64,000 bases of DNA from Bispira polyomma (taxonomy: Eukaryota), in assembly GCA_965649765.1 (NCBI GenBank), contig OZ287749.1, positions 18,352,001 to 18,416,000 on the forward strand, written 5' to 3'. This document shows, piece by piece, positions 4,889 through 64,000 of this stretch. The notes under the pieces were generated by a model. The model was given only the letters and a program-made list of their open reading frames with translations. It was not told the DNA's origin and made no database searches. Position numbers and translations under genes: made by a program. Within the stretch, counting starts at the first letter, position 1; each line of letters starts with the position of its first letter.

Positions 4889-6591
4889 ACCTTATATTAC
4901 CTATATTATCTCCTTTTTACACTGTGTTTACAGAAGCCTCACTCCCCACCAGGCTAGGAGTTCACTCAGTCTGTGTGTGATGAGTGCTGTGTTAGCTATG
5001 TTGTGTAAGGATCAGGGTATCACTGTATTGGGGTGTGTGGTATACATTCCTACTGTCAACACTGTCATAAAACCACAAAATTCCCCACTACCAGCACAGC
5101 ATTTTTAGGACTATGTGTAAGTTTTTAAATATAGTATCTACTACTAATAACACTGTCATAAAACCACAAAATTTGTCACCACTAGGACAGCCTGTACGGA
5201 GTTATGTCTAAGTATTTAAATATATAGAGTACAACAAAAAAATTAGTAGAACCTCTATTATCCAAATACTCTCTCAAATTGATATTTTCCTATTGTTTTG
5301 CTAGTTAAATGCCTTTTCTATTTTATGAACCTTCTGCTATCTGTGAACAAATCTTGGTGTTCTAATAATAGAGATTCTATTGTAACTGTGCTATTAGCTG
5401 TATGTAAGTGCTAAGCTGGGATTACATTCATGAAGTTATGAATGTTCTATTTACCTCCGCCAAAGAAGTTAGTTTAGTTTTCGCCAGGTTCCATAGTGGT
5501 TTGTTTCTTTACATCAACCAATTTACGTAAACTTGGGATGGGGAATGGCGAAAAGAAGAAACCTGTAGATTTATTTAGGTTTTACTTTGCTTTAACGGCT
5601 TAGGTCATATCACGACAGCCAGAACCAATGTTGAAAGAAATTAGTGCTAAAGCACTGTAAACCCCCAACTTATGGCAAGTACCTGACAAACTTTGACACA
5701 CAAAAGAACAAACAGGATTCAAATCAACATTGGTAAGAGGCCAGTGATTGTTAAGCAGATACTTCTAAGCAGTAGGCCACTGTGGCCCCTCTTTTAAATT
5801 TTGGAGTGGATCTAGGTAGAAGGGGGATCCAATATCTAATTTCATTGCTGTGGCCCCTTGTCCGAGGATTGCATTCTATTAAGTGTTCTTCTAGTCAGCT
5901 GTTTTAACTACTCTCAGTTAGCACTTATTTTCTTTTGCTGGTATGAGTTTAAAAGTTAATTATAACAAGTGTTACTTTAGCTCCCCCCCTTTTTTTAATT
6001 TGGATATTTAACGTCCACTCTAGTACCTGTTTAGATTATATCGGGACGGGTAGTTTGAAACGCTGGAGGAAACACTGCATACAGTTGATCAAGGTTTTGC
6101 ACTGAAACCAGCGGCCCACAGTAAGGAACTACCACTTTTCCCACATAGGCATCAAGGGGATTCAAAATCACGCTGCCCAGAGGTGAGAGACCAGTGATTG
6201 CGAAACACAATGCTTGCTAACCACTAGGCCACCGCAGCCCCGCCCCCCCTAGAAGTTTACCACATTATGTATGAGCTAAAAGGCCCAGGCCCAGATAAAC
6301 ACAGAAACTAGATGCCTAGCAGTATTGATGTTTTTATCACTAATCTTATTATGCATATGTGGATTATTTCCTTCACATCTACACAGTAAATGAGTTAATA
6401 CCTGACTGCACTAATATTTGTTTATCCTTTTAAGACCAGCCTCACCCTCAGTTTAATGACTGTTACTTATTTTTGTCTGACTCTATATAAGTTAATAACT
6501 GATTGTAATAATAATTGTTTTACCCATTCAGCCTGTTCCTCAGTGTAAGAGTCACCTGGTTACAAGGGTCACTGCCAGTATTTCAAAGAGA
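4889..6591. repeat. Outer right arm of inverted duplication
   Basis: Reverse complement of 1-1703. Confidence 0.97.
4934..5116 (+). pseudogene. TMTC1-like exon (transmembrane region; MLCKDQGITVLG), in-frame TAG at 5106-5108
   Basis: tttacag acceptor; motif matches TMTC MLxKEQGITVLG; GTAAGT donor at 5117. Confidence 0.8.
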
Positions 6592-8916: not shown

Positions 8917-9720
8917 TTGATAATAATTGATAATTGAAATATTTATGTAGCGCCAATTTGATGAGAACATTCTCTAAGGCGCTGATATCCAAAAAGGGAA
9001 ACTCAAGGGACAAGCAAAGGTCATTACCAAAAAGCATCCAAAAAGAGAAGGGTGACAAAGCAGGGGTGTAGGCAAGTCTGAAAAGGTAATTTTTCAGATG
9101 GCTTCTGAAACCAGTGATTTTATTCTGCGATCTGACAGTATGTGGGAGTTTGTTTCATTCCACAGGGTATTTATACCGTACAGCAAGGAGTTGCAATAGT
9201 CTAGCTGGCTGCTCTCCATTGCGTTAGCCACTTGGACTGCAACTTCAATACTGAGGTACCTGCGTATTCTGCGCAGATTGCATAGATGGTAGCAGCAGGC
9301 CTGGCAGACACTGGCTACATGATTTCTGAAAGAGTTATCTTGGTCGAAAATAACACCAAGGTTCTTGACTTTACTTGATGGTGATATATTGTTGTTTAAT
9401 ACACTGATTGGAAAGAATGGTTTGCAGCTGTCTCGAGTGGAGTTTTCGCCTATAGTAATGAATTCGGTTTTATCTGGGTCGAGGGTTGTGGGTTGGCTTG
9501 ACGCTTTCCATGCATGTTTGCACAGCCTCGAGGCATTTTGCCAACTCTGATATGCTTGAGTAAAAGTTTCTAGCATCTATCCCTAAGTATATTTGTGTGT
9601 CATCAGCATACAGATGGTGGGTGACATTAAACTGAGAAATTATTTTACTGAGGGAATGGTGTACATGGTGAAAAGTAAAGGGCCTAATAGAGAACCTTGT
9701 GGTAGTGAGAAAGCTTCTGA
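8917..9720 (-). mobile_element. L2/CR1-group LINE ORF2 fragment with 3' end
   Basis: HLYADDTQIY RT motif, KTEF, VKNLGVIFD, LDYCNSLL motifs. Confidence 0.9.
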
Positions 9721-24413: not shown

Positions 24414-27400
24414 CAGTGACCTTTTAAGGACCAGTCGCTTCAAGTTTTAAGACATACATAACAACAATATACTTTTTGGTATTTTATTCCATACATTGAG
24501 CATTACCACTTTGATTTGATATTGTGTGACATAAATAACAAGCCATGATATAGTAGTGATATTATTTAGTGCGTACTAAAGAATAATACTAATACACCTC
24601 ATAAGGGAACAACACTTGAGTAAATGCTATAGCACAATATAGAATCCTTCCCAGTTGGTGCCTCTCATTGAACTGCGATGAGGCACGCGTACTGCTAAAG
24701 TAGTTCAGTGTGATGTCCGTGACATTTTGATCACTGAACATGTTGGCCATTATGTCCTCGCAAACCTACTACAGTGACCTTTCAAAGGCCAGTGACCTTA
24801 AAGTTTTAAAACATAGATAACAACAACATACTTTTTGTTATTTTATTCCATTTCATTTATTGAATTCAGTATCACCAATTTTATTTGACATTGTGTGACA
24901 TAAATAACAAGCCATAATATAGTAGTGATATTATTTAGTGCATACTAAAAAATAATACTAATACATCCCAAGCCAAACAAGAATTTAAGAAAGAATTAGT
25001 ATATATTTGGATATATTTGAAAGTGTGGGGAACAAGGCTGAGGTTTTGCCCAGCTTAAAGATTGGACCAGATAGCGTCTGAAGTCCAAGTGCCATGAGCT
25101 TGAAGGCAATGAAGGGGGACGTTGTTTTGGAACAAGAGTGAGGCTCCTGACCGTCTGAATTCATGGAACCCAAGTGTGGAATAGTTGAGGCCAAGAATGG
25201 CCAAAATATTTTTTAATACATGTCTAACTTTTACATCTGTTAAGATTTGATATTGGTTGCCATAAGGCACTACAAACAAGGGGGAGGCCAGTGGCATGGC
25301 AAACTCACTATACATGTCAGCCACAGTCTGAACTGGACATAGAGGTGAACCAGGTAATAGGGGAAGTTGCAACTGGACATTGGTTTGTTGACTTTGCATG
25401 GCTTTAGCCCATTTAACACTGATAACTAGTCCAGGATCCTGGAACTTAACATCACACCTTAGAAGCAACCACCCGCTATCATACATATACACAGAATGTG
25501 ACACTAAGTTGCTGATAAAAAATAAGCCAAAGAAGGTTATCAAAAATATTGCCTTAAATACACGTTGCTCAATGTAGGCCAAAATGACACTAAGTGAGTA
25601 GTGTGGGTGAGAAACTGAGTGGGTGACACAAAATTTAAGAAAATCAGACAATGTACGACTATAAAGGGCCCTGGTCTTGGGCTGGAAGGCGAATTTGGCT
25701 GTAACTTGAGTTGTCGTACTCTGTGTAAAACTAAAACATACATATACATAACTAACATTGAACTTTTGTCTCAGATAAGGGCGGTTGCATGACAAGACAG
25801 CTGACTGAACTGTATATGTGGAAGAAAGTCTTTTTCCTTGAGTCTAAATACCGAGATAAGAGGTCTGCCCCCACATTGTCTATTCCCAACACATGTCTGA
25901 CCTGCAGTGTGATATCATGAGTAGCCGTAAGGAGCCATTTGTGTCTAGCAACTTGAAGGAGATAGGGGTCTTTCTTCCTATTGAAATTTAAAATATTTAC
26001 CACTGTGTTGTTATCACAATACAGGATTTCATTGGAGTTGATAAATGCAGGCAACCATGTGGTAAGAGCAGTGTATACATTAAGCATTTCAAAATGAACA
26101 ATAATAGCAGGGTGATCAGCTAACTGATCTAACTCTAAATGATACCCAACCTGTTTATAAACTTCCCCTAGACCAGATAACTTGGCATCTACATAGACAA
26201 CTTCATTGTGGATAACAGGTTTGTCAAAAAAGACTACACTATTAAACTGGCTAAAAATGTCACAAATCACTTTATGTCTGCAATGAATGATTTAGGTAGC
26301 TTAAGCCTACTAGTATCAGGACAAGAATGCAGTACTTGCAAAATGCGGTTAACAAAAAGTCTAGCTGGTTTAATACATTTACTAATGTACAATAGTTTTC
26401 CTACAATACTTTGCACTTTGTTCTTGGTGTCATACGTCTTAAGACTCCATTCCATACAAAGGTTAGTATTTAAGTAAGTTTATCAGGAGGAAGACTATGG
26501 GTACCTGCTGTTACATCAATTTGAGAGCCCAAACATGTTATAGCTTGCCTGTAGATTCCAATTTGGACGGACTTTCTGGAAGGCCAAGCTCCTTGACCAA
26601 TTTGAGTGGGAAATTAAAGGCTGAAGTGGCAGCTTTTAACGAGCTGTGAATACCAATTATGTCATCAATATATTTGTAAACCACATGACCTAGCTAAGCC
26701 GTTATATACCTAATACTGTCTGTAATTCGCTGGCAATAATGGCTTCCATGCCTAAAGCCAAAGGGTACCGCTTCATCAACATAGTAAGCATTCTGCCAAT
26801 ATGAACCTAATAAATGGAGATCATGAGGGTCTACTCTCAAATTATGAAATGCGCGCTTCGATAGCATTATAATTACATTCAGTTGTGATGTAATGTGTAA
26901 TGTGGTCAGGGTACTCAATTACTGAAGGGTTGTTATATTGACAGGTAACATAATGTCCATTATAATAACTAGGCAAATCGGTGTCATGCACCATGTCACT
27001 ACTGGTGTGACTGATTTGACAAGATTCCTGAATGACTTTACACACACTGAAAACATTGACTCTGTAATTGTAATACAAGGTCTCTGAGGGTCATAAGCAG
27101 AATATAAAACCACCATATAGGAAACATAACTGAGAAAAATTGACAAGTGTACACAGCCTTTGTTACCAACCCACAACAGGCTCTGCCCTCCTTACAATAC
27201 ACAGAGGTTACACAGCATGCAACACAACTATACACTAACCAGAATCCCATCAGGATATGTAAATTTAACAACTCAGTAATAATAGAGCAGAGAGCTTGGA
27301 CCCTGCCAACAAGTTCTCGTGTACTAACATAAAGAAGAGGGGAAACTGAATTACCAACCCTAGGTATGACTGTATTAAGTCTGGTAGAACCATGTTTGTG

Positions 27401-33698: not shown

Positions 33699-33870
33699 AC
33701 AGTAAAACCTCCATGAATGAACACCTCTGAATAGTAAACACTTCAATGCCTCCAATTACGATTTCAACACCATTGAATTCTAAATTGCCTTTGAATTGTG
33801 AATATCTCCTTATAGTTAATATTTTGGTTGGGTTCTGTGAGTATTCACTATATAAAGGCTTTACTCTATA
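33699..33870. mobile_element. Tc1/mariner-pogo type MITE (related degenerate copies near 1205-1350, 30870, 32350-32560, 35823-36103)
   Basis: TA|CAGTAAAACCTCC...GGCTTTACTCTA termini, TA flanks. Confidence 0.6.
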
Positions 33871-34521
33871 TAGTACTTGTCCAAGGTACAAGGTTTTCAA
33901 AAATACTCACTTGTTCAGTTGGTCCAGTGAGCATTCACTATATAAAGGCTTTACTGTATACAGTATTTGTCCAAGGTACAAGCTTTTTAAGAATACTCAC
34001 TTGATGAGTTGTTATCAAGAACTTTTTACCCATCTCCAACCCCAATAGCATTAAAGACTGTATTAATTTTGTAAAAGTGTTTTAATTCTGGATAACCTGT
34101 AATATTTAGATCCATACTTTAATTACAAGTGTGGTGTTAACATTGGGCATTGAAATCCAAATAATTAATTTTTTTAGATTTCTGTTTTATAAGTCCCAGG
34201 TTACACTGGTCAAACGTTCATTGTGCTGAGAGTTTTACATTTTAATGGTCCTACCCAGGCAAATGGTCTACCTTGTTAAAACAGAACAGTGATCTTAACT
34301 TACATTCCTTCCAGTGTAAAGTCTGAAAGTATATTTCCTTTCATTTTATACCTAGACAGATTCCAGGGGGCCTCGTATTTTGAGATTTTGCAAAAAAGTC
34401 ATTGGACAAAGTGGGTCGGGTAGAATCTGGGAGGCCGGGATAGAGTCTGGGAGGACAGGATAGAGTCAGAAAGGACGAACTGAAGTGGGTATATATTCGG
34501 GGGGGGGGGGGGGGGGGGGGG

Positions 34522-34879
34522 GTTACACCAGCACAGGAACTAGCTTTATACACTATTTTAACAGGAGTCAGTTCAAAATGGAATTGTTAAGAATTTCAGT
34601 TGATAACGCTGTGAGTTTTAGGAATTTAGTACCAGGTTTAAATAAAACTATCAGAGTAAACCAGGACTCTTTAATCTCCCACAATTCATCTATTTCACTT
34701 GTTACACCAGCACAGGAACTAGCTTTATACACTATTTTAACAGGAGTCAGTTCAAAATGGAATTGTTAAGAATTTCAGTTGATAACGCTGTGAGTTTTAG
34801 GAATTTAGTACCAGGTTTAAATAAAACTATCAGAGTAAACCAGGACTCTTTAATCTCCCACAATTCATCTATTTCACTT
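34522..34879. repeat. Perfect 179-bp tandem duplication abutting a poly-G tract (34499-34522)
   Basis: Units 34522-34700 and 34701-34879 identical. Confidence 0.95.
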
Positions 34880-36103
34880 GGACAAAATGTTTCTGCATAA
34901 TAATTCATAATTGATTGTTTTTCTTTATTATAAATTCAACTGAAATCAATAGATTTACTAAAGAAAGCTTTTTTAAAAAAACTCAACGTTTAAGTCAACG
35001 TTTACTACTAAGATATTAAATTGACAAAGTTGAGTGTCAAGTCATTTGAAAAAAACAGAATAAATTGATCAATCAACTCCTTTGAGATTCTAGATGTTTA
35101 GACAGTAAGTTTAAGTCCCAGTTGAGCACTTTGTTTTTGTTTTCTGAGAATTCTGTTTTTGTAAAATACCAAATGGTTTGTGTTAGTGGGCATTCTGTAA
35201 AATGGATGGAGTCTCTCCAGATTTAAGCTTTGATTTCCTGCCACTCATAAAATAGACCTCAACTTGCTGACAAAGACACTCACTATAATTTTTCTTTTTC
35301 TTTCTTAAAACACACATGTGGGTGAAGTGAGTGTTTTATTCCCAATACTGTCTCTTTATCTTGAAATAACCTTTTTTAGTAGAGTACAATGAAATGGTTA
35401 CAGAGTCGCACAAAAAGCTGTCTCTTCATGTGGAAGTAATCTCATTTAGTAGAGTACAAAGAATTGGTTAAAAGAATCACACAGAAAAACCTCAATGTTC
35501 TTACTGTGTACTCTAGGGATCTATAAATCAAATATACACAAATGGACTATGGTGACAGTGTGGTTTGCAATGCGTCAAACATACATTCTTTATCATAAAA
35601 TGGGCTGTGGATTAGTAGTACTAAATGCAACCTAGATTATCCAAACTGCTGTTTTGTTGCTTTATTTTCACTTTTTCCATTGGTGTTTTACCATTTACGG
35701 TTCTTACAGAAATGCCAATCGTATTTCAACTTCTAATATCTGAACATAATCTTGCTCTCCTAACATGTTCCTATAATATTTATTATTTATCGTAGTTGTT
35801 GGGGTATTGTAGTTCCTTGTTGATACAATTGAACCCCTCTAGGTTAAACCTCAAGGGACCAAGAGAAATAACGCTACTAAAACAGTATTACCCAGCAGGG
35901 TAAATTTTTAAAAAGGTTTTTGTGGCACCATTGTTTATTTTTTTACATAAAACGGAAATTGACTTGGCACAGTTTTACTTAAATACCACTACTAAAGCAA
36001 GATTTCTATTTAACAGGGTATAAATTTGAAAAACACGAATTTTTGGGACTAGTACAGATATCTCTCAACATAAAAGGGTAAATTCACTCAGCAGAGTTCT
36101 ACT

Positions 36104-44543: not shown

Positions 44544-44801
44544 GGGGCCGCGGTGGCCTAGTGGTTAGCAAGCATTGCGCTTTACAATCACTGGTCTCTC
44601 ACTTCTGGGCGGCGTGAGTTCGAATCCTGTCGATGCCTATGTGGGAAAGGTGGTAGTTCCTTACTGTGGGCTGCTGGTTTCTCTGCAGAACCTTGACCGA
44701 CTGTATGCAGTGTTTCCTCCAGCGTTTCCAACTACCCGTCCTAATATAACCTACTAAAAGGTACTAGAGTGGACGTTAAATATCCAAATTCAAATTCAAA
44801 C
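44544..44801 (+). mobile_element. Intact tRNA-derived SINE with 12-bp target-site duplication
   Basis: A-box TGGCCTAGTGG, B-box GAGTTCGAATCC, (CAAATT)n tail, TSD GTCTCTCTTAAT at 44532-44543 and 44802-44813. Confidence 0.93.
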
Positions 44802-52898: not shown

Positions 52899-55800
52899 TG
52901 CTAAGTAAACCCAATAGGGTTAGTAAGTTAAGTGCTGACCCTAAAATTAAAATTATTCTGGTTAAGTGACCTTAGTTGTTGATTGATTAGCAGGTGGCCT
53001 ATATTCTCTGACAATTCCTGCCAAAAGCCATAAAACCTCACTTTAAATTAAGAATTTGGAATGGCAGAACGCCATTTTAAAAACTTTTAAATCTTTTTAA
53101 TTTGTTTTATATATTTACATTACACTTTTATTCTATGTCTTTTTATGGTTTTATATATAACCGAGTATTCATATGTGTTGTAGTCAAGGAATAAATGCTA
53201 ACTGGACTGAAAAGTGAAGCTTGTAGGAACCAGACTGGATTTATTTGTCAAACAGCTTTGACATATGCCAATTTTGCTCTTTTTCTAAGACTACGGTTGA
53301 TGGTTGTGCTTATTTTTATTTGAAATTTACATAATTTATTTCTAAACAAACTACAACCTCAATCCTAATAGGGGATCAATCAAAATAGGGGACAAATACG
53401 ATCTACAACTTCAGGTAAAAAGAAAACATAGGGAAGTGGTCGCTAAAGCAGAAAGGCAATCCCTTACTCAAAAAATGGAACAAACAAAACAAAAAAAATT
53501 TGGTTTCATTCCCCTAGGTAATTTGAAACTACCAGAGGTGGTAAAGGTCTGTCCACACTTAGGCGACCCTCTTGAAATTAGTGAAAAAGGAAAAATGCCC
53601 TATTTTCTTAATTTTAATATTTTAATAGAACCTGTTCCTTCAAAAATAAAGGGCAAAATCACAGCTCGGCTATTAAGTTTCAGGAAGATGTAAAAGCATA
53701 TCTCAAAGCAGAAAAAGAATTCGGGGCAATTCCTTTTGAGGAACCTCCTTTATCCAAATTGCATGTTTCCTCGTTTATGACATTACCTAAACCAGATGCT
53801 AAGCATAGGAGAGTTATTATTGATTGGAGTTGCCCACAAGGGCGTGCAGTTAACTTGGCTATAGACAGAGACCAGTACCTTGACACCCCTTCATACTTAA
53901 GCTTCCCACGGTTGATGACATCACTCGAAATGTGGTCAAATTAGGCAAGGGACCAATATTTTATAAATTACACATTAGTCGAGCTTTTAGGCACATGAAA
54001 ATTGATCCGGCCGACTATGATCTGCTAGGTTTACAACTGAATTACTACTATATTGACACGTGCCTGCCATTTGGCTATCGCCAGGTTAACGCTATCTTTC
54101 AAAGACTGAGTGACGCCATTTGGTTTATCATGATGTCACAGGGTCACAAGGTTATAAACTATGTCGATGACGTCATCAGGTATGGCCTTTCCTCTAAAAT
54201 TTTTGATTCATTTGAAAAATTGAAAGACATATTTGGTAATTAGGTTTTGGTATCAGTCAACAGTGGTTACTCCTAGTACCAAGGTACTACGTCTACTTGT
54301 CTTAGTCAATACTGAAGACTTTACAGTCTCTATTCCGGATAATAAACTGAAACAAATAAGCTATGTCAGAACTGGGTGAATAAGAAAAGCTGCATTAAAA
54401 GACGGTTACATTCGTTATTTGGTTTATTATTATATATTTCCAAATCTGTCAAAACTTCCTGAGCTTATTTTAATAGAATGTTAGACACCCTGAGGGGCTC
54501 TCAAAATGCTCATGAAATTAAGCTAGACATTGCATTTCACCAGTATCTGAACTGGTTTAATACCTTCATGACAACTTTTAATGGCATAGCCCTTTTTACC
54601 TTAGACTAGTAACAGATCAGATACACTTAGATGGATGTTTGCAAGGATTAGGTGCTTGCTGCAACAACCAAATTTATACTAAAGAAATTCCTGTCGGTTA
54701 CAGAGATTATACTATCCACCTTAAAATGATAAATATTTTAGCAGCAATCAGGGTCTAGAAAAATCAGTGGGCTGGACGAAAGTTACTTATACACTTTGAC
54801 AACCAAGCTGTTGTTTTTATTTTAAACTCAGAAAAAATATATTATCTCAATCTGGCAGCAATGGCCAAAAACATTTTTATGGAAGCTGCAAAAAAGATAT
54901 CGAACTGAGAACGGTACATATTCTGGGCAAACAAAATATCACAGCGGATTTACTCTGTATCTCTAGGTGGACTATTACCACTGACAATAATAAAAAAAAT
55001 GAGTGAGTTGGTTAAAAATCCCACCTGGTTACTGGTCCATGGTGACGTTTTAGAAATGTATTGGTCTATTTAGCTCTAACATTTTTCAGGCTCTACAACC
55101 TGGGTGTCTAAGCTACCAGACAGAGCAGTCAATAGAGCACAACAGGTTTTTCGCCCTTCTACACGAAAAGCATACACAGCCATGTTCAGAATATTCTTGG
55201 CATATTGCTGCTTTGCTTACATTTCGAGGTACAACATCACACCTATAGTAATTCTAGGCTTTCTGGAAGTTTTGGTAGTTAACAATACATCTTATACCTC
55301 AGTCGCAAATTACCTTTCGGCAATAAAGGTAATTGTCACTGTATGGGCTACAAGTAACTGCCTTCGACGATCAAAGAATAAATTATTTTCCAAAAGCCCT
55401 CATCTTACATAAGCCCTTTAGGGCAAAAATAAATGGAATTATTGATATTGACTTACTGCAAAATATAGCTCTCATCTGTGATTCTATGTACATGGGTCAA
55501 ATTTACAAGGTTGCTTACCTTCTAGCCTTCTTTTTTCTGCGTATTTTCAATCTAGTACCACACTCTCAGAGTACATACTCACCTTTTGCAGCAGCTAGGC
55601 AGGGCTGACATCATTTTCGATCCTCCAGGTGCTCACATAATAATAAAATGGACAAAACCCTAGAGCCAACAAATACCATTAAAGTTATTACAATTCCTGC
55701 ACTACAAAATAAGATTATTTGCCCAGGCACAGCCCTTAAGGTACTTCAGCAGAAATCTCAAAGATTTTAAGTAGGTTAAACAAGACCCAGGCAAATATTA

Positions 55801-56000
55801 TCTTTCACACTTTCGGTTGATCTGGAGCGACATTAGCCTTCAATGCACATGTCCCTCTGCAGGACACTCAGAGTCAGGGCATCTGGTCCTCTGAATGTGT
55901 GTAAAGATACATCACCCAAGACCATTTGGCCTCTGACAAGGTCACGCCGGCTCTCCAACCCCTTCTCAACCCTCTTCCTAATTCCTAGTTGGGCCTTGGT
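52899..56000 (+). mobile_element. Degenerate YR retrotransposon, sister of 59400 copy; gag deleted
   Basis: 5' 470 bp align to 59400-59875; RT YVDD, RNase H and YR remnants with many stops and frameshifts. Confidence 0.93.
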
Positions 56001-59000: not shown

Positions 59001-59920
59001 TTCTAACAAAGATCGCCTAAAATAATGACAATAAAGTCAAAGCTTTAAAGAATGAGTTCATGTAACTGCATGTGCTTTCACTCTGAGTTCACATGGTACT
59101 TTTTGATAATAGTGTGGCTATTGAGTTACATATATATAGTAATAGTCAGTAACCTAAGTGGATACTTCTGGGTTGCTACAGGCATAATCTGATAGAACAA
59201 AAGCAGAATAAAGAGTAACAACAAAAAAGGCGAAACATCTAGCTTCAATTACAAATAAAAAGGTTTTGATGAATTTTTTATATAATATTTTCAAGATGTT
59301 TAAAAATATGGTTTTAAAACATTAAATCATTGTGCCTAGTAAAGGCCCCTTCCCACATAGGCAAAACTGGCTTGGTGACAAGCAGCAACATAAAATGTTT
59401 GCTAGGTAAACCCAACGGGGTTAGTAAGTTCAGTGCTGACCATAAATTACATTGTTAAAACTATTCTGGTTATGCTGACCTTTACTAGTGATTGGCCAGC
59501 AGTTGGCCTACTTTCTCTCACATTTGCCGCCAATTTCTACCCAACCTCACTTTAATTTAAGACTTTGAAAGGGCGGAACGCCATCTTAAAAACTTTCAAA
59601 TATTTTTACATTTGTTTTTATATTTTACATAACTCTTTATTTGTGTGTCTTTTTATGCATCTTTACATAACTGAGTCTTAATATATGTTGTAGTAAGAGG
59701 ATGAGAGCTTACTGGACTGGAAATTAAAGATTGCTGGCACCTGACTGGAGTTATTGTCAAATTGCTTTGACATATGCGAATTTTGCTCTTTCTTTAGGGC
59801 TATAGTCGAGGGATGTGTTTACTTTGATTCGAAATTTAATATAATTTATTTACAAATTCAAAACAACCTCAACTTAAGATACGCATATACCAAAGCATTT
59901 GTGTATATTTTACTTGCAGA

Positions 59921-60982
59921 ATGGCACCTCGGGTGAATCATGATTGTAGGGCGTGCAAAAGTAGTCACAAAAAGCCCATTAATGACGATTGTCCATTCAT
60001 GAAAAAATCTGACACTAATGAACAGAATGACACTACCAGTGCGGCTATTAACTTACGTATTTTAAAAGAATTAAAAGGACTAAGTGGCCGCATGTCGGCA
60101 ATGGAAAAACGTGTTGATCAATCTGAGTGTAGAAACAATCTTCCTAGTGCTCCAGCACATACTGTGGCCGCTGCTCCTGCAGAATTCTCGACCCCAGCCA
60201 CGTTTATGCAGCCAACAGTCCAAGGTACGACTCCGGCGGCGATGGCTCAACCAGTATTCCAGCCAGTTCCAGAGACAGACGATACGCTGGTCCCCACGCT
60301 GACTACCCTAAGGACGTCAGACTACTTGCAGCAGGCGGTAGATGCTAGACTGCGCGACCTGGCTGGACTCTCTGACAAAGGTAACTGCAAATCTCAACGA
60401 GGTGGGGCTGAAACTGTATGGGTAAAACGACAGGTGGCATGGCCACAAAATCATATTCTGGGTGGCACAACTAAATCTCGAACAACTTATGACAGCCTTT
60501 CGATGGCCCAATGGATCTCGGGTTTTTGCTTTACCGTTAGAGATGAGAATAATGTAGAAACAAAAAATGCAATGTTAGATTATGTTCAAGATCTAATGGA
60601 AGATTGTCGCGACTTTTCGTGGGCAGCTGCGAAAGGCAGCCACGCGGTGTTACTCTGTCGTATGGAGGAAGGTAAAGTTTCGTGGGATGAAACGGCTAAA
60701 ATTGATCATATTAGATGTGCTCATGCACAAAAAGTGGTCAACACTTCAGGTCACTCGAATTATCAGAGTACTAGGCAAAAAGCTAATGAAAAGGGAATTC
60801 CCTGTAAATACTTTCAAAAAGGATCCTGTCCCCACAAGACTGAACATGAAACCAAAGGTCACACGTATTTGCACATCTGTGCTACTTGCCTGACTTTTGG
60901 GAAAAGCTTCTCACACCCATCTAGAGACTGTCATAGGAACAAAACTAGTAAATTTGGTGAAAGTAGTGCAAAAAACGAGTAG
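59921..60982 (+). CDS. gag-like ORF1, 353 aa, intact
   Basis: N-terminal CxxC..H..C motif, heptad-like helix, C-terminal CKYFQ..C..H..HIC..C..H..C zinc finger. Confidence 0.9.
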   Translation: MAPRVNHDCRACKSSHKKPINDDCPFMKKSDTNEQNDTTSAAINLRILKELKGLSGRMSAMEKRVDQSECRNNLPSAPAHTVAAAPAEFSTPATFMQPTVQGTTPAAMAQPVFQPVPETDDTLVPTLTTLRTSDYLQQAVDARLRDLAGLSDKGNCKSQRGGAETVWVKRQVAWPQNHILGGTTKSRTTYDSLSMAQWISGFCFTVRDENNVETKNAMLDYVQDLMEDCRDFSWAAAKGSHAVLLCRMEEGKVSWDETAKIDHIRCAHAQKVVNTSGHSNYQSTRQKANEKGIPCKYFQKGSCPHKTEHETKGHTYLHICATCLTFGKSFSHPSRDCHRNKTSKFGESSAKNE

Positions 60983-61005
60983 GGCACTGCAGTACAGCAG
61001 TGCCC
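60970..61005 (+). promoter_or_regulatory. Putative -1 ribosomal frameshift signal (A_AAA_AAC, 5-nt spacer, 9-bp hairpin)
   Basis: Heptamer in gag frame; -1 frame is open into ORF 61000-62085; stem GGGCACTGC/GCAGTGCCC. Confidence 0.8.
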
Positions 61006-63377
61006 AAATATTCTGCTCATATCTCCAGTACACATGTAAATGATCACAAGCAGTATTGTGCTGGTAGAACTGTATATAATGTAAATGTTGCCAGATGGTG
61101 TAGCGACAATTGGAGAGCTGACTGGGCCAAATTTAGCAAGAAATCATATGCTCAGGTAGTAAAAGGAAATAAAAACAATATTCAAAACAGGGTATTAAGC
61201 TTAGGTCAAGGTCAGCCCTCCAAAGGTCGCTCAAATGTACAGAAAAAGTTGTTTAAAAATGTAAAAAGAAAAAATGTAAACAATTGCAAGCAGTGGACAA
61301 AGGTTCCACAAAAGGAGAACCCAAAGTCATTTGTAAAACGTCAAATACCCCATTCAAATGTAGAGAATAAGGGTCAAACTGACACCTCTAGTAAAAACAA
61401 GAATGATGTCGACAAGGTAATCTCTAACCAATCAGTGAGGTGTGAGGTCGTGAACAACAGTGGTATTAAGTGTCCGAATAGATTTACACCCTTGCTAACA
61501 TGTACTGAGACTGAAGCAATTAGTCACATCAGATTCTCAAGTTCAACAGATGATACCCCAAACAATCAGACTGGGGACAAGTATGAACAAGAGTTACAAG
61601 TTAAAAGAAAACATAGGGATGTGGTAGCTAAAGCGGAACACAACCCTTTGTTTCATAAATGGAACAAGCAAAATAAAGAGAAATTTGGCTTCATTCCACT
61701 GGGAAATTTAAAACTCCCAAATGAGGTTAAGGCAAGTTCACACTCGGGTGATCCTCTTGAGTTGCACAAGTTGGTGAGAAAACAAAAATGTCCAAATTTC
61801 TTAGGAGCTCAAATAACAGTGGTTTCTCAGCTGCATGTAGAAGAATGGAAAAAACTATTGGGTGACTATTGGGATACCCAACTGATCCAATTGCTCAAAT
61901 TTGGATTTCCCTTAGATTTTAATAGAAATTGTCCCTTAGAAAACAAAGGTGACAACCATAGCTCAGCTATCCAGTTTCAAGAAGACGTTAAAGCTTATCT
62001 CAAGGAGGAAAAAGATTTTGGAGCAATAATTGGGCCATTGAAAGAACCCCCCCTTTATCCGAACTACATGTTTCACCATTCATGACTCGGCCTAAACCGG
62101 ATGCTAAGCATAGAAGAGTTATTATTGACCTAAGTTGCCCACAGGGTCGTGCTATAAATTCAGCCATAGATAGAGACCAATATCTTGACACTCCCTTTAT
62201 ACTTACATTACCCACAGTGGATGATATCACACGTAATGTAATCAAATTAGGCAGAGGTACACTATTGTACAAGCTAGATATCAGTCGCGCCTTTAGACAA
62301 AAATTGATCCAGCCGACTACGACCTGCTAGGCTTGAGATTAAATGAGTACTATATCGATACGTGTCTGCTCTTTGGCTATCGCCACGGCAGCACCATTTT
62401 TCAACGCCTCAGCGACGCTATTCGGTTTATCATAACGTCACAAGGTTATGACGTCATCAATTATATTGATGACGTCATAGGATATGGAATTTTGACAAAC
62501 ATTTTCGAAGCTTTTGAGAAATTGAAAGAAATTTTTCATAAATTAGGTTTTACTCTCAGTAACAAAAAAGTGGTTGCTCCTAGTACCAAAGTATTACGCT
62601 TAGGCGTCCTCATCAATACTGAAGATTTTACCGTATCTATCCCAGATAGTAAACTGAATGAGATAAAACATATATGTCACAGTTGGACAACTAAGAAAAC
62701 ATGCACCAAACGACAGCTCCAGTCATTACTGGGTTCATTGTTATACATCTCAAAATGTGTCAAAACGTCACAAGCTTACCTCAATAGAATGTTGGACACC
62801 CTCAGAGGTGCTCAAAACATTAAGTTAGATATAAATTTTCACCAGGATCTCAACTGGTTTAATACCTTTCTTACAACATTCAATGGTATGGCCTTCTTTG
62901 ACCACAGACCAGTAACAGGCCAGGTACATCTGGATGCATGTTTGCAGGGACTGGGTGCATGTTGTAACAATCAAATTTTTACAAAAGAAATTCCTCTTGG
63001 CTATAGAGACTACACTATCGTCCACCTGGAGATGATAAATATTTTAGTATCTATTAGGCTTTGGAAAAGTAAATGGTCGGGGAAAAAATTACTTATACAC
63101 TGTGATAACCAAGCAGTTGTGTCTATTCTTGTCTATCTCAGGAAAGACCTATGATCTTACTCTCGCAGCAATGACTAGAAATATTTTCATGGAAGCTGCA
63201 AAGGCAGATATAGAAATCAGAATGGTGCATATCCTGGGTAAAAGAAACAATATAGCTGATTTACTTTCTAGATGGGCCATTACCACTGACAGGGATAGGA
63301 AATTACAGGAAATACTTCAGAATCCAACATGGTTACAGGTCCATGATGACCTTTTAGAGATAGATTGGTCTATATAG
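60970..63377 (+). pseudogene. pol (RT + RNase H) broken by at least three frameshifts
   Basis: ORF pieces 61000-62085, 62082-62330, 62333-63154, 63102-63377 concatenate to a DIRS-type RT/RNase H. Confidence 0.92.
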
Positions 63378-63392
63378 TTCTAACAATTTCAG

Positions 63393-64000
63393 CATCTCCT
63401 ACCTGGGTCGCAAAATTGGCAGACAGAGCAGTCACTAGAGCGCATCAGGCCTTTCGTCCTTCCACACAAAAGTCCTACACAGCAATGTTTAGGGTATTTT
63501 TAGCATATTGCTGCTTTGCAACTATCTCTATATATAATATCGTTCCTTCAGTAATTCTAGCCTTTCTGGAGGTCCTAGTAGTTAACAATACCTCTCATAC
63601 CTCTGTGGCAAACTATCTCTCAGCGATAAAAGCTAATATGTCACTATATGGGCTTCCAGTCACTGCTTTTGCGGATCAAAGAATTAAGTATTTTCAAATT
63701 CTCCACTATTCCAAGTGAAAAACGACACTCGATGGCTAACATTAACAGACAGCAAAATTTGCAGAAATCTCAAAGATATTTTAGTTAGACTAAACAAAGA
63801 TCAAGCAAATATAACATTTCACACATTCCGTCGCTCTGGGGCGACCTTAGCATTTAATGCTCATGTTCCATTACAGGACATACAAAGTCAGGGCATCTGG
63901 TCCTCTGATTGTGTGTGGCGATATATCACTCAGGACCACTCGGCCTCTGACCAGGTTGCCCTTGCCCTACAATCTCTCATCAACCCACTACCTACTTCCT
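63393..64000 (+). pseudogene. Tyrosine recombinase with internal deletion near 63695
   Basis: AFRPSTQKSY..NYLSAIK N-domain; catalytic HTFRR..W..Y; central part present only in the sister copy. Confidence 0.9.

Follow-up and report, generated by a model that had tools for sequence, protein, structure and literature searches.

How the three open reading frames (ORFs) of tyrosine recombinase (YR) retrotransposons are expressed when two of them lack a start codon is a question largely unaddressed in the literature that we found, in the available parts of which only a guess of frameshifting for the Ngaro YR was met. The question is raised by a locus at the end of a 64,000-nucleotide stretch of Bispira polyomma DNA (contig OZ287749.1, hereafter the window), where gag is followed by pol in the −1 frame and then by a YR frame. 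An earlier note on this DNA, made from the letters alone, had described a −1 programmed frameshift cassette between gag and pol and proposed that a DIRS-order element makes Gag-Pol by this means. The features of the locus are listed in Table 1.

Table 1. Features of the element at the end of the window (positions in the window)
Feature	Position	Strand	Remarks
Element 5′ non-coding region	59400–59920	+	59400–59872 78% identical to 52899–53362 of copy 2
ORF1, Gag-like, 353 aa	59921–60982	+	62 relatives; zinc fingers
Putative phase-1 splice donor in gag	60378–60386	+	Cut follows position 60380, 153 codons and 1 nt into gag
Slippery heptamer A_AAA_AAC	60970–60976	+	Gag phase (X_XXY_YYZ), ATG 59921; K-N footprint in 35/40 relatives
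Spacer, 5 nt	60977–60981	+	
Predicted stimulator of frameshifting: GC-rich stem (9 bp), 6-nt loop	60982–61005	+	Arms compatible in relatives
pol in −1 frame: N-terminal motif, long variable linker, RT, RNase H	60970–63377	+	
Conserved motif W-[RK]-x-D...[ST]YAQV	61111–61165	+	From codon 48 of −1 frame, ahead of its first ATG
Putative branch point and phase-1 splice acceptor	63378–63392	+	Between pol stop and YR frame
Tyrosine recombinase (YR) ORF	63393–64000	+	No ATG at start; runs off window

Identity and state of the element

The ORF1 product has an N-terminal Cys/His motif, a long helix (38–71), a helical core (about 181–281) and C-terminal zinc fingers, and it was tentatively labelled Gag from its position and a weak zinc-finger match (Pfam zf-CCCH_4, E 0.022, below cut-off). 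Its structure model (mean pLDDT 71.5) gave no capsid match in a fold search, in which the best target (Z 5.6, rmsd 4.5, 86 aligned) was an unrelated helical protein, and comparison with PDB sequences gave nothing below E 0.62. The 863-aa relative P0174 aligned along pol in four frame segments, the breaks in the window copy being located near 62055, at 62300–62315 and at 63130–63138. Pfam matches of the window copy were weak and below cut-off, and an intact relative gave RVT_1 at E 4e-11. The YR ORF, which has an internal deletion near 63695, was matched by Phage_int_SAM (E 0.0012) and by Phage_integrase (E 0.00088), neither of which reached the cut-off, and was also supported by tblastn. Because pol is broken three times and the YR carries an internal deletion, the window copy is a dead, decayed element, and its frameshift signal would be an inherited remnant.

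The presence of RT/RNase H together with a tyrosine recombinase agreed with the DIRS-order assignment of the earlier note and supports classification of the element, judged by its domains, as a YR retrotransposon of this order. A DDE integrase was absent, the element carrying a tyrosine recombinase instead, and no protease motif D-[ST]-G was found in the front part of Pol. The pol stop at 63377 lies directly after RNase H, P0174 ends likewise, and no methyltransferase domain was present after RNase H in either the window copy or the intact relative. DIRS1-like and PAT-like elements share with the window element the three ORFs, the YR and a related RT, but they have a methyltransferase after RNase H, where the Pol of the window element ends; DIRS1-like elements are also described, in the accessible parts of the literature, as often having long pol/YR overlaps and inverted repeats. 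Elements of the Ngaro superfamily, as far as they are covered in the available portions of PMC3266345, PMC3783388 and PMC9210276, have the same order of gag, RT/RNase H and YR, the same lack of a methyltransferase and the same short ORF overlaps. The domain order and the missing methyltransferase fit a Ngaro-like element rather than a DIRS1 or PAT one. As for split direct repeats (A1...B1-A2-B2), no 5′/3′ repeat scored above shuffled sequences in the decayed copy 2, and the 3′ end of the window copy lies beyond the window. The relatives used throughout were unnamed database entries, and the recognition score of the cluster search was below a useful level.

Further relics were found in the window. 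Copy 2 (52899–55986, plus strand) is about 75% identical to the window copy and heavily decayed, and a deletion (equivalent to about 59872–61563) has removed its gag, its frameshift cassette and the first part of its pol. A distant gag relic at 30% identity lies at about 48250–47170 on the minus strand (more narrowly, about 47860–47227), with no pol detected behind it; its frame runs on for about 160 codons with 3 stops, so that its junction may be in frame or rely on readthrough. A third relic of a YR retrotransposon, with RT, RNase H and YR, lies at about 26900–25019 on the minus strand and has an acceptor-like site at 25731.

Anatomy of the frameshift cassette

The positions of heptamer, spacer, stem and loop and the Gag phase of the heptamer, all given in the earlier note, were exact. 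The C-terminus of Gag is K-N-E-stop, so the stop comes two codons after the heptamer, and this stop (60980–60982) overlaps both the spacer and the base of the stem. The two arms (60982–60990 and 60997–61005) are exact reverse complements, with a predicted hairpin energy of −18.0 kcal/mol; folding of a 54-nt segment containing the hairpin gave z = −4.5, with none of 200 shuffles equally stable, and the minimum-energy fold additionally paired the spacer with 61014–61018. In order to evaluate the chance expectation, all XXX-YYY-Z heptamers on both strands of the window were counted (879 in total; 442 + 437). A perfect stem of at least 9 bp within 3–9 nt followed only 2 of the 879, the second one being weak (−4.8 kcal/mol), and the downstream fold at the 60970 heptamer was the most stable of all (−19.5 kcal/mol; next −15.9). 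An Rfam search returned only a chance match (E 0.78).

From the heptamer, the −1 frame runs for 371 codons before a stop, and its first ATG is codon 367, in line with the earlier description of a stop-free frame lacking an early ATG (none for 366 codons). The length of 361 aa given there for this ORF fits a start at GTG 61000, but the ORF is only the front of Pol, ending at 62083 because the copy is decayed. In sequence, the cassette has everything expected of a −1 frameshift signal, its structure being a predicted one, and it has in common with retroviral and LTR-retrotransposon signals an X_XXY_YYZ heptamer near the gag end, a spacer within 5–9 nt, a stimulator and pol in the −1 frame. The same heptamer, A_AAA_AAC, is used by MMTV, HTLV and astrovirus, in the latter two together with stem-loops.

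Conservation of the heptamer and the stem in Gag relatives

The earlier note had proposed covariation of the stem across family copies as a check, and the family comparison came out positive for both the heptamer and the stem on protein footprints, the signal of the relatives being read from protein ends, not from DNA. We found 62 Gag relatives at 38–61% identity, which are mutually related, so that the counts below overstate independence. Among the 40 relatives with an intact last zinc-finger motif, 35 showed K-N after the last zinc finger, at or near the end (background 0.7% per position), and 27 of these 35 terminated one residue past K-N. The remaining five comprised one Q-K-T, one entering the Pol frame via K-K-R, one K-K-E and two ending earlier, while the 22 relatives without the zinc-finger motif comprised one K-N-E plus tail, six Q-K-T and 15 uninformative ends. 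The residue preceding K-N was S, A, P or T in 36/36 cases (background 26%), and the K-N footprint was spread across the tree of the relatives. Q-K-T, which is the +1 reading of the heptamer bases, thus occurred in seven out-of-frame tails. Since frame 0 keeps K-N and frame +1 reads Q-K-T, A_AAA_AAC would by the genetic code be conserved at the codon level, with no synonymous variants. The single-member record P0036 reads in frame from Gag into the Pol frame and ends before RT; this in-frame protein is probably a lesion. With regard to DNA of the relatives, a GTDB scan with the Gag alignment gave 25 pattern matches, none of which was confirmed, and a scan with the heptamer-plus-stem pattern gave no match.

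Conservation of the stem was evaluated in 16 tails of relatives that read past the usual stop, with the register of the arm fixed at 6 nt after the heptamer. The 5′ arm was compatible, with at most one mismatch, in 14 of the 16 tails (8/9 in frame 0, null 0.26%; 6/7 in frame +1, null 1.1%), and nine tails were long enough to cover the 3′ arm, which was compatible in 8 of them; the tails of P0005 and P0059 misfitted the stem. Six of the +1 tails had initially been chosen with a pattern extending into the arm, and an unbiased re-search gave seven tails, six of them with the arm. In a permissive, register-free test, a stem of at least 9 bp was possible in 8 of 10 relatives, compared with 4–13% of random peptides. 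The residues of P0039 suggest a compensatory change of an inner A-U to a C-G pair, and those of the P0016/P0041 clade suggest another of the outer G-C to an A-U pair.

The 9-bp stem with its 6-nt loop had been correctly described for the window copy; however, the stem of the relatives starts 6 nt after the heptamer and their loops are mostly 4 nt, and therefore the outer pair and the 6-nt loop are particular to this copy. Because the loops also differ among relatives, a simple stem-loop is the most likely form of the stimulator. A pseudoknot was considered as well and judged unlikely, the loops being so short and variable.

Coding potential of the −1 frame

The region of the conserved N-terminal motif (first 90 codons) was matched in BLAST by 8 of the 150 best Pol relatives, many predicted relatives beginning further in than this motif. 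Upstream Met positions in the motif-bearing relatives were scattered from −6 to −43, and therefore no common Pol start is apparent. Not one of the 150 best Pol relatives showed a Gag match, i.e. there were no Gag-RT fusions among them, and a dedicated search for longer Gag forms, in itself weak evidence, found none. Ahead of the motif, no phase-compatible splice acceptor was seen, since none of the five phase-1 AGs at 60977–61140 had a pyrimidine tract (at most 35% pyrimidine). By these sequence features the −1 frame reads as coding from its very start.

Probable Gag-Pol synthesis by −1 frameshifting and its alternatives

Taken with the anatomy of the cassette, the protein footprints argue strongly for the Gag-Pol reading of the earlier note: the cassette is very likely the gag-pol −1 programmed frameshift signal of a Ngaro-like YR family. 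Most ribosomes would stop two codons after the heptamer and release Gag, while a minority would pause at the hairpin and slip back one base on A_AAA_AAC by tandem slippage, yielding a Gag-Pol fusion that would remain uncleaved, because no protease is present, with RT carried on a long variable linker. A high Gag:Pol ratio would be set in this way, and RT would be tethered to the particle. According to the available part of PMC5009743, A_AAA_AAC is among the shiftiest heptamers on mammalian ribosomes, and spacers are usually 5–9 nt. The distant gag relic (30% identical, minus strand) has neither the heptamer nor a strong hairpin at its end, and therefore the cassette is demonstrated for the closer clade only.

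Another explanation would be that a spliced RNA is the source of Pol, or that translation re-initiates at GTG 61000, which is in frame and lies within the 3′ arm; the hairpin would then have another job, e.g. packaging. The element does bear signs of splicing, a pyrimidine-rich AG is present at 61028, GTG 61000 is part of the conserved arm, and the predicted Pol P0070 begins in the stem region. However, the 61028 site is in phase 2 and incompatible with the donor in gag, none of the five phase-1 AGs described above has a pyrimidine tract, and it would be left unexplained why the heptamer is kept codon by codon and at a constant spacing from the stem, so that we regard this explanation as improbable.

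It is very improbable that K-N-E is a protein-level motif at the C-terminus of Gag, with an incidental hairpin and a −1 offset that arose as a decay lesion of an in-frame gag-pol. The termination of most K-N relatives one residue later, the retention of the stem arms beyond the stop and the lack of Gag-RT fusions in the 150 Pol relatives all argue against it, even if the pol of the window copy has three other frame breaks, P0036 is in frame, and the gag frame of the distant relic is fairly open beyond the zinc finger. Slippage of RNA polymerase, instead of the ribosome, on the six-A run is scarcely credible: hairpin-assisted transcriptional slippage is known in bacteria, but there, as stated in the available part of PMC5009743, the hairpin forms in the nascent RNA behind the polymerase. 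A hairpin 3′ of the run would presumably still await transcription at that point, and the phase, the AAC as second codon and a 3′ hairpin 5–6 nt off suit the ribosome.

Candidate splicing for recombinase expression

For the YR frame, a splice route was suggested by a donor in gag and an acceptor behind pol. Scored against the established splice donor consensus, the donor at 60380 was the sole site with at least 8 of 9 matches in 59400–63400. At the corresponding positions the relatives have G (98%), K/M/T (45/10/7) and F/L/C/S/Y/I (38/11/6/4/2/1), which is the pattern expected because a G|GT-A-x-G-T donor forces it. This footprint was the best of 296 column triplets of Gag (0.97; next 0.24); a fit to a single first base was also found in 3 of 164 variable columns. 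In the distant gag relic, a phase-1 GTAAG donor is located at the homologous place (47796, minus strand). An acceptor-like site lies 15–21 nt past the pol stop in 3/3 YR-bearing copies of the window, in phase 1 at 63392 and at 55089 (copy 2) and in an ambiguous phase at 25731 (third relic, minus strand). Acceptor-like sites passing the filter numbered 10 in the window copy and 2 in copy 2, and only the post-pol site was shared. We therefore favour, as the probable route, a spliced mRNA that would join Gag 1–153 in frame to the YR (donor 60380, acceptor 63392) and from which both pol and the frameshift cassette would be spliced out as an intron.

A possible but rather doubtful alternative is that YR is reached by a second −1 frameshift in a pol/YR overlap, or has its own start codon. 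In the window copy, YR is indeed −1 to pol and overlaps the pol end (63350–63377), and such a frameshift was proposed for Ngaro by Poulter and Butler 2015, as quoted in the accessible part of PMC13003380. However, no slippery heptamer was found in 63330–63380, and in copy 2 the YR is in the frame of pol, behind two stops. An own start would agree with 3 of 7 YR relatives, which begin with a start-type codon shortly (a few codons) past the position equivalent to the acceptor, and the donor of the window copy has C at +5, which speaks for routes other than splicing; against these stand the post-pol acceptor-like site in all three copies and the rank of the donor footprint among the column triplets. 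The Gag–YR splice hence remains our preferred reading.

Other splice-like and promoter-like elements were seen upstream. An acceptor-like pyrimidine tract with CAG (59895–59919, plus strand) ends one base ahead of the gag ATG, and upstream extensions of the relatives P0010 and P0050 read, by eye, compatibly with this acceptor, which suggests an intron in the 5′ UTR, for which no donor could be located. The 5′ regions of both copies contain a GTAAGT hexamer and a CGCCAT-containing motif (about 59420–59430 and 59575–59590, plus strand), which could represent an internal promoter or a first exon, and we take the latter motif to be YY1-like.

Comparison with known systems

In the available part of PMC5009743, the frame of pol was −1 in 28 of 51 animal LTR retroelements surveyed, many with heptamers, and DIRS and Ngaro were unmentioned in the first two-thirds of that paper. 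The window element differs from retroviruses and LTR elements in having a tyrosine recombinase and neither a DDE integrase nor a protease motif. If the frameshift reading is true, −1 frameshifting would not be confined to retroviruses and LTR elements but would also occur in a protease-free lineage that uses a recombinase.

The earlier note had called this mechanism poorly documented for YR retrotransposons. This holds insofar as we found no defined gag-pol site, but frameshifting had already been proposed for the Ngaro pol/YR junction (PMC13003380, available part), a proposal that the window sequence does not support. No gag-pol slippery site or spliced Gag-YR of DIRS or Ngaro elements was met in the literature searched, which consisted mostly of titles and the starts of abstracts; Goodwin and Poulter 2004 and Poulter and Butler 2015 may already note an overlap or introns. 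By term search, ‘slippery’ was absent from PMC3783388, PMC8547959, PMC6681497 and PMC3266345, and ‘frameshift’ from PMC7192593 and PMC5633606, while in the accessible portions of PMC9210276 and PMC2632668 nothing beyond overlapping or alternate frames is mentioned.

The conserved cassette amounts to 36 nt and the mechanism itself is textbook; what is likely described here is thus not a new mechanism but a known one, in a class of elements for which we met it only as a guess, with a probable spliced Gag-recombinase alongside. We give about an even chance to the broader reading, in which a broad Ngaro-like clade would make Gag, a protease-free Gag-Pol (by −1 frameshift) and a Gag(1–153)-recombinase (by splicing), all from one RNA. 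If true, this scheme would supersede the frameshift that has been suggested for the YR ORF of Ngaro. ORF1 appears to govern the choice of Ngaro integration sites in Cafeteria (PMC8547959, available part), and a Gag-YR fusion, if real, would offer a mechanism for this, because the recombinase would carry a portion of Gag with it. Annotators of such elements would have to treat the offset between gag and pol as a signal, not as decay.

Other repeats in the window

Several repeats apart from the element were observed. Positions 1–2522 and 6591–3858 form a large inverted duplication at 98–99.6% identity, possibly a foldback element or an assembly artefact. Tandem duplications are present at 34522–34880 (exact, about 180 nt) and at 33831–34011 (about 90 nt, 88%). 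A 160-codon open frame at 9097–9576 on the minus strand presumably resembles the end of a LINE-type reverse transcriptase, and a dispersed repeat of about 250 nt recurs at 352–592, 5993–6241 and 44544–44794 with 86–89% identity.
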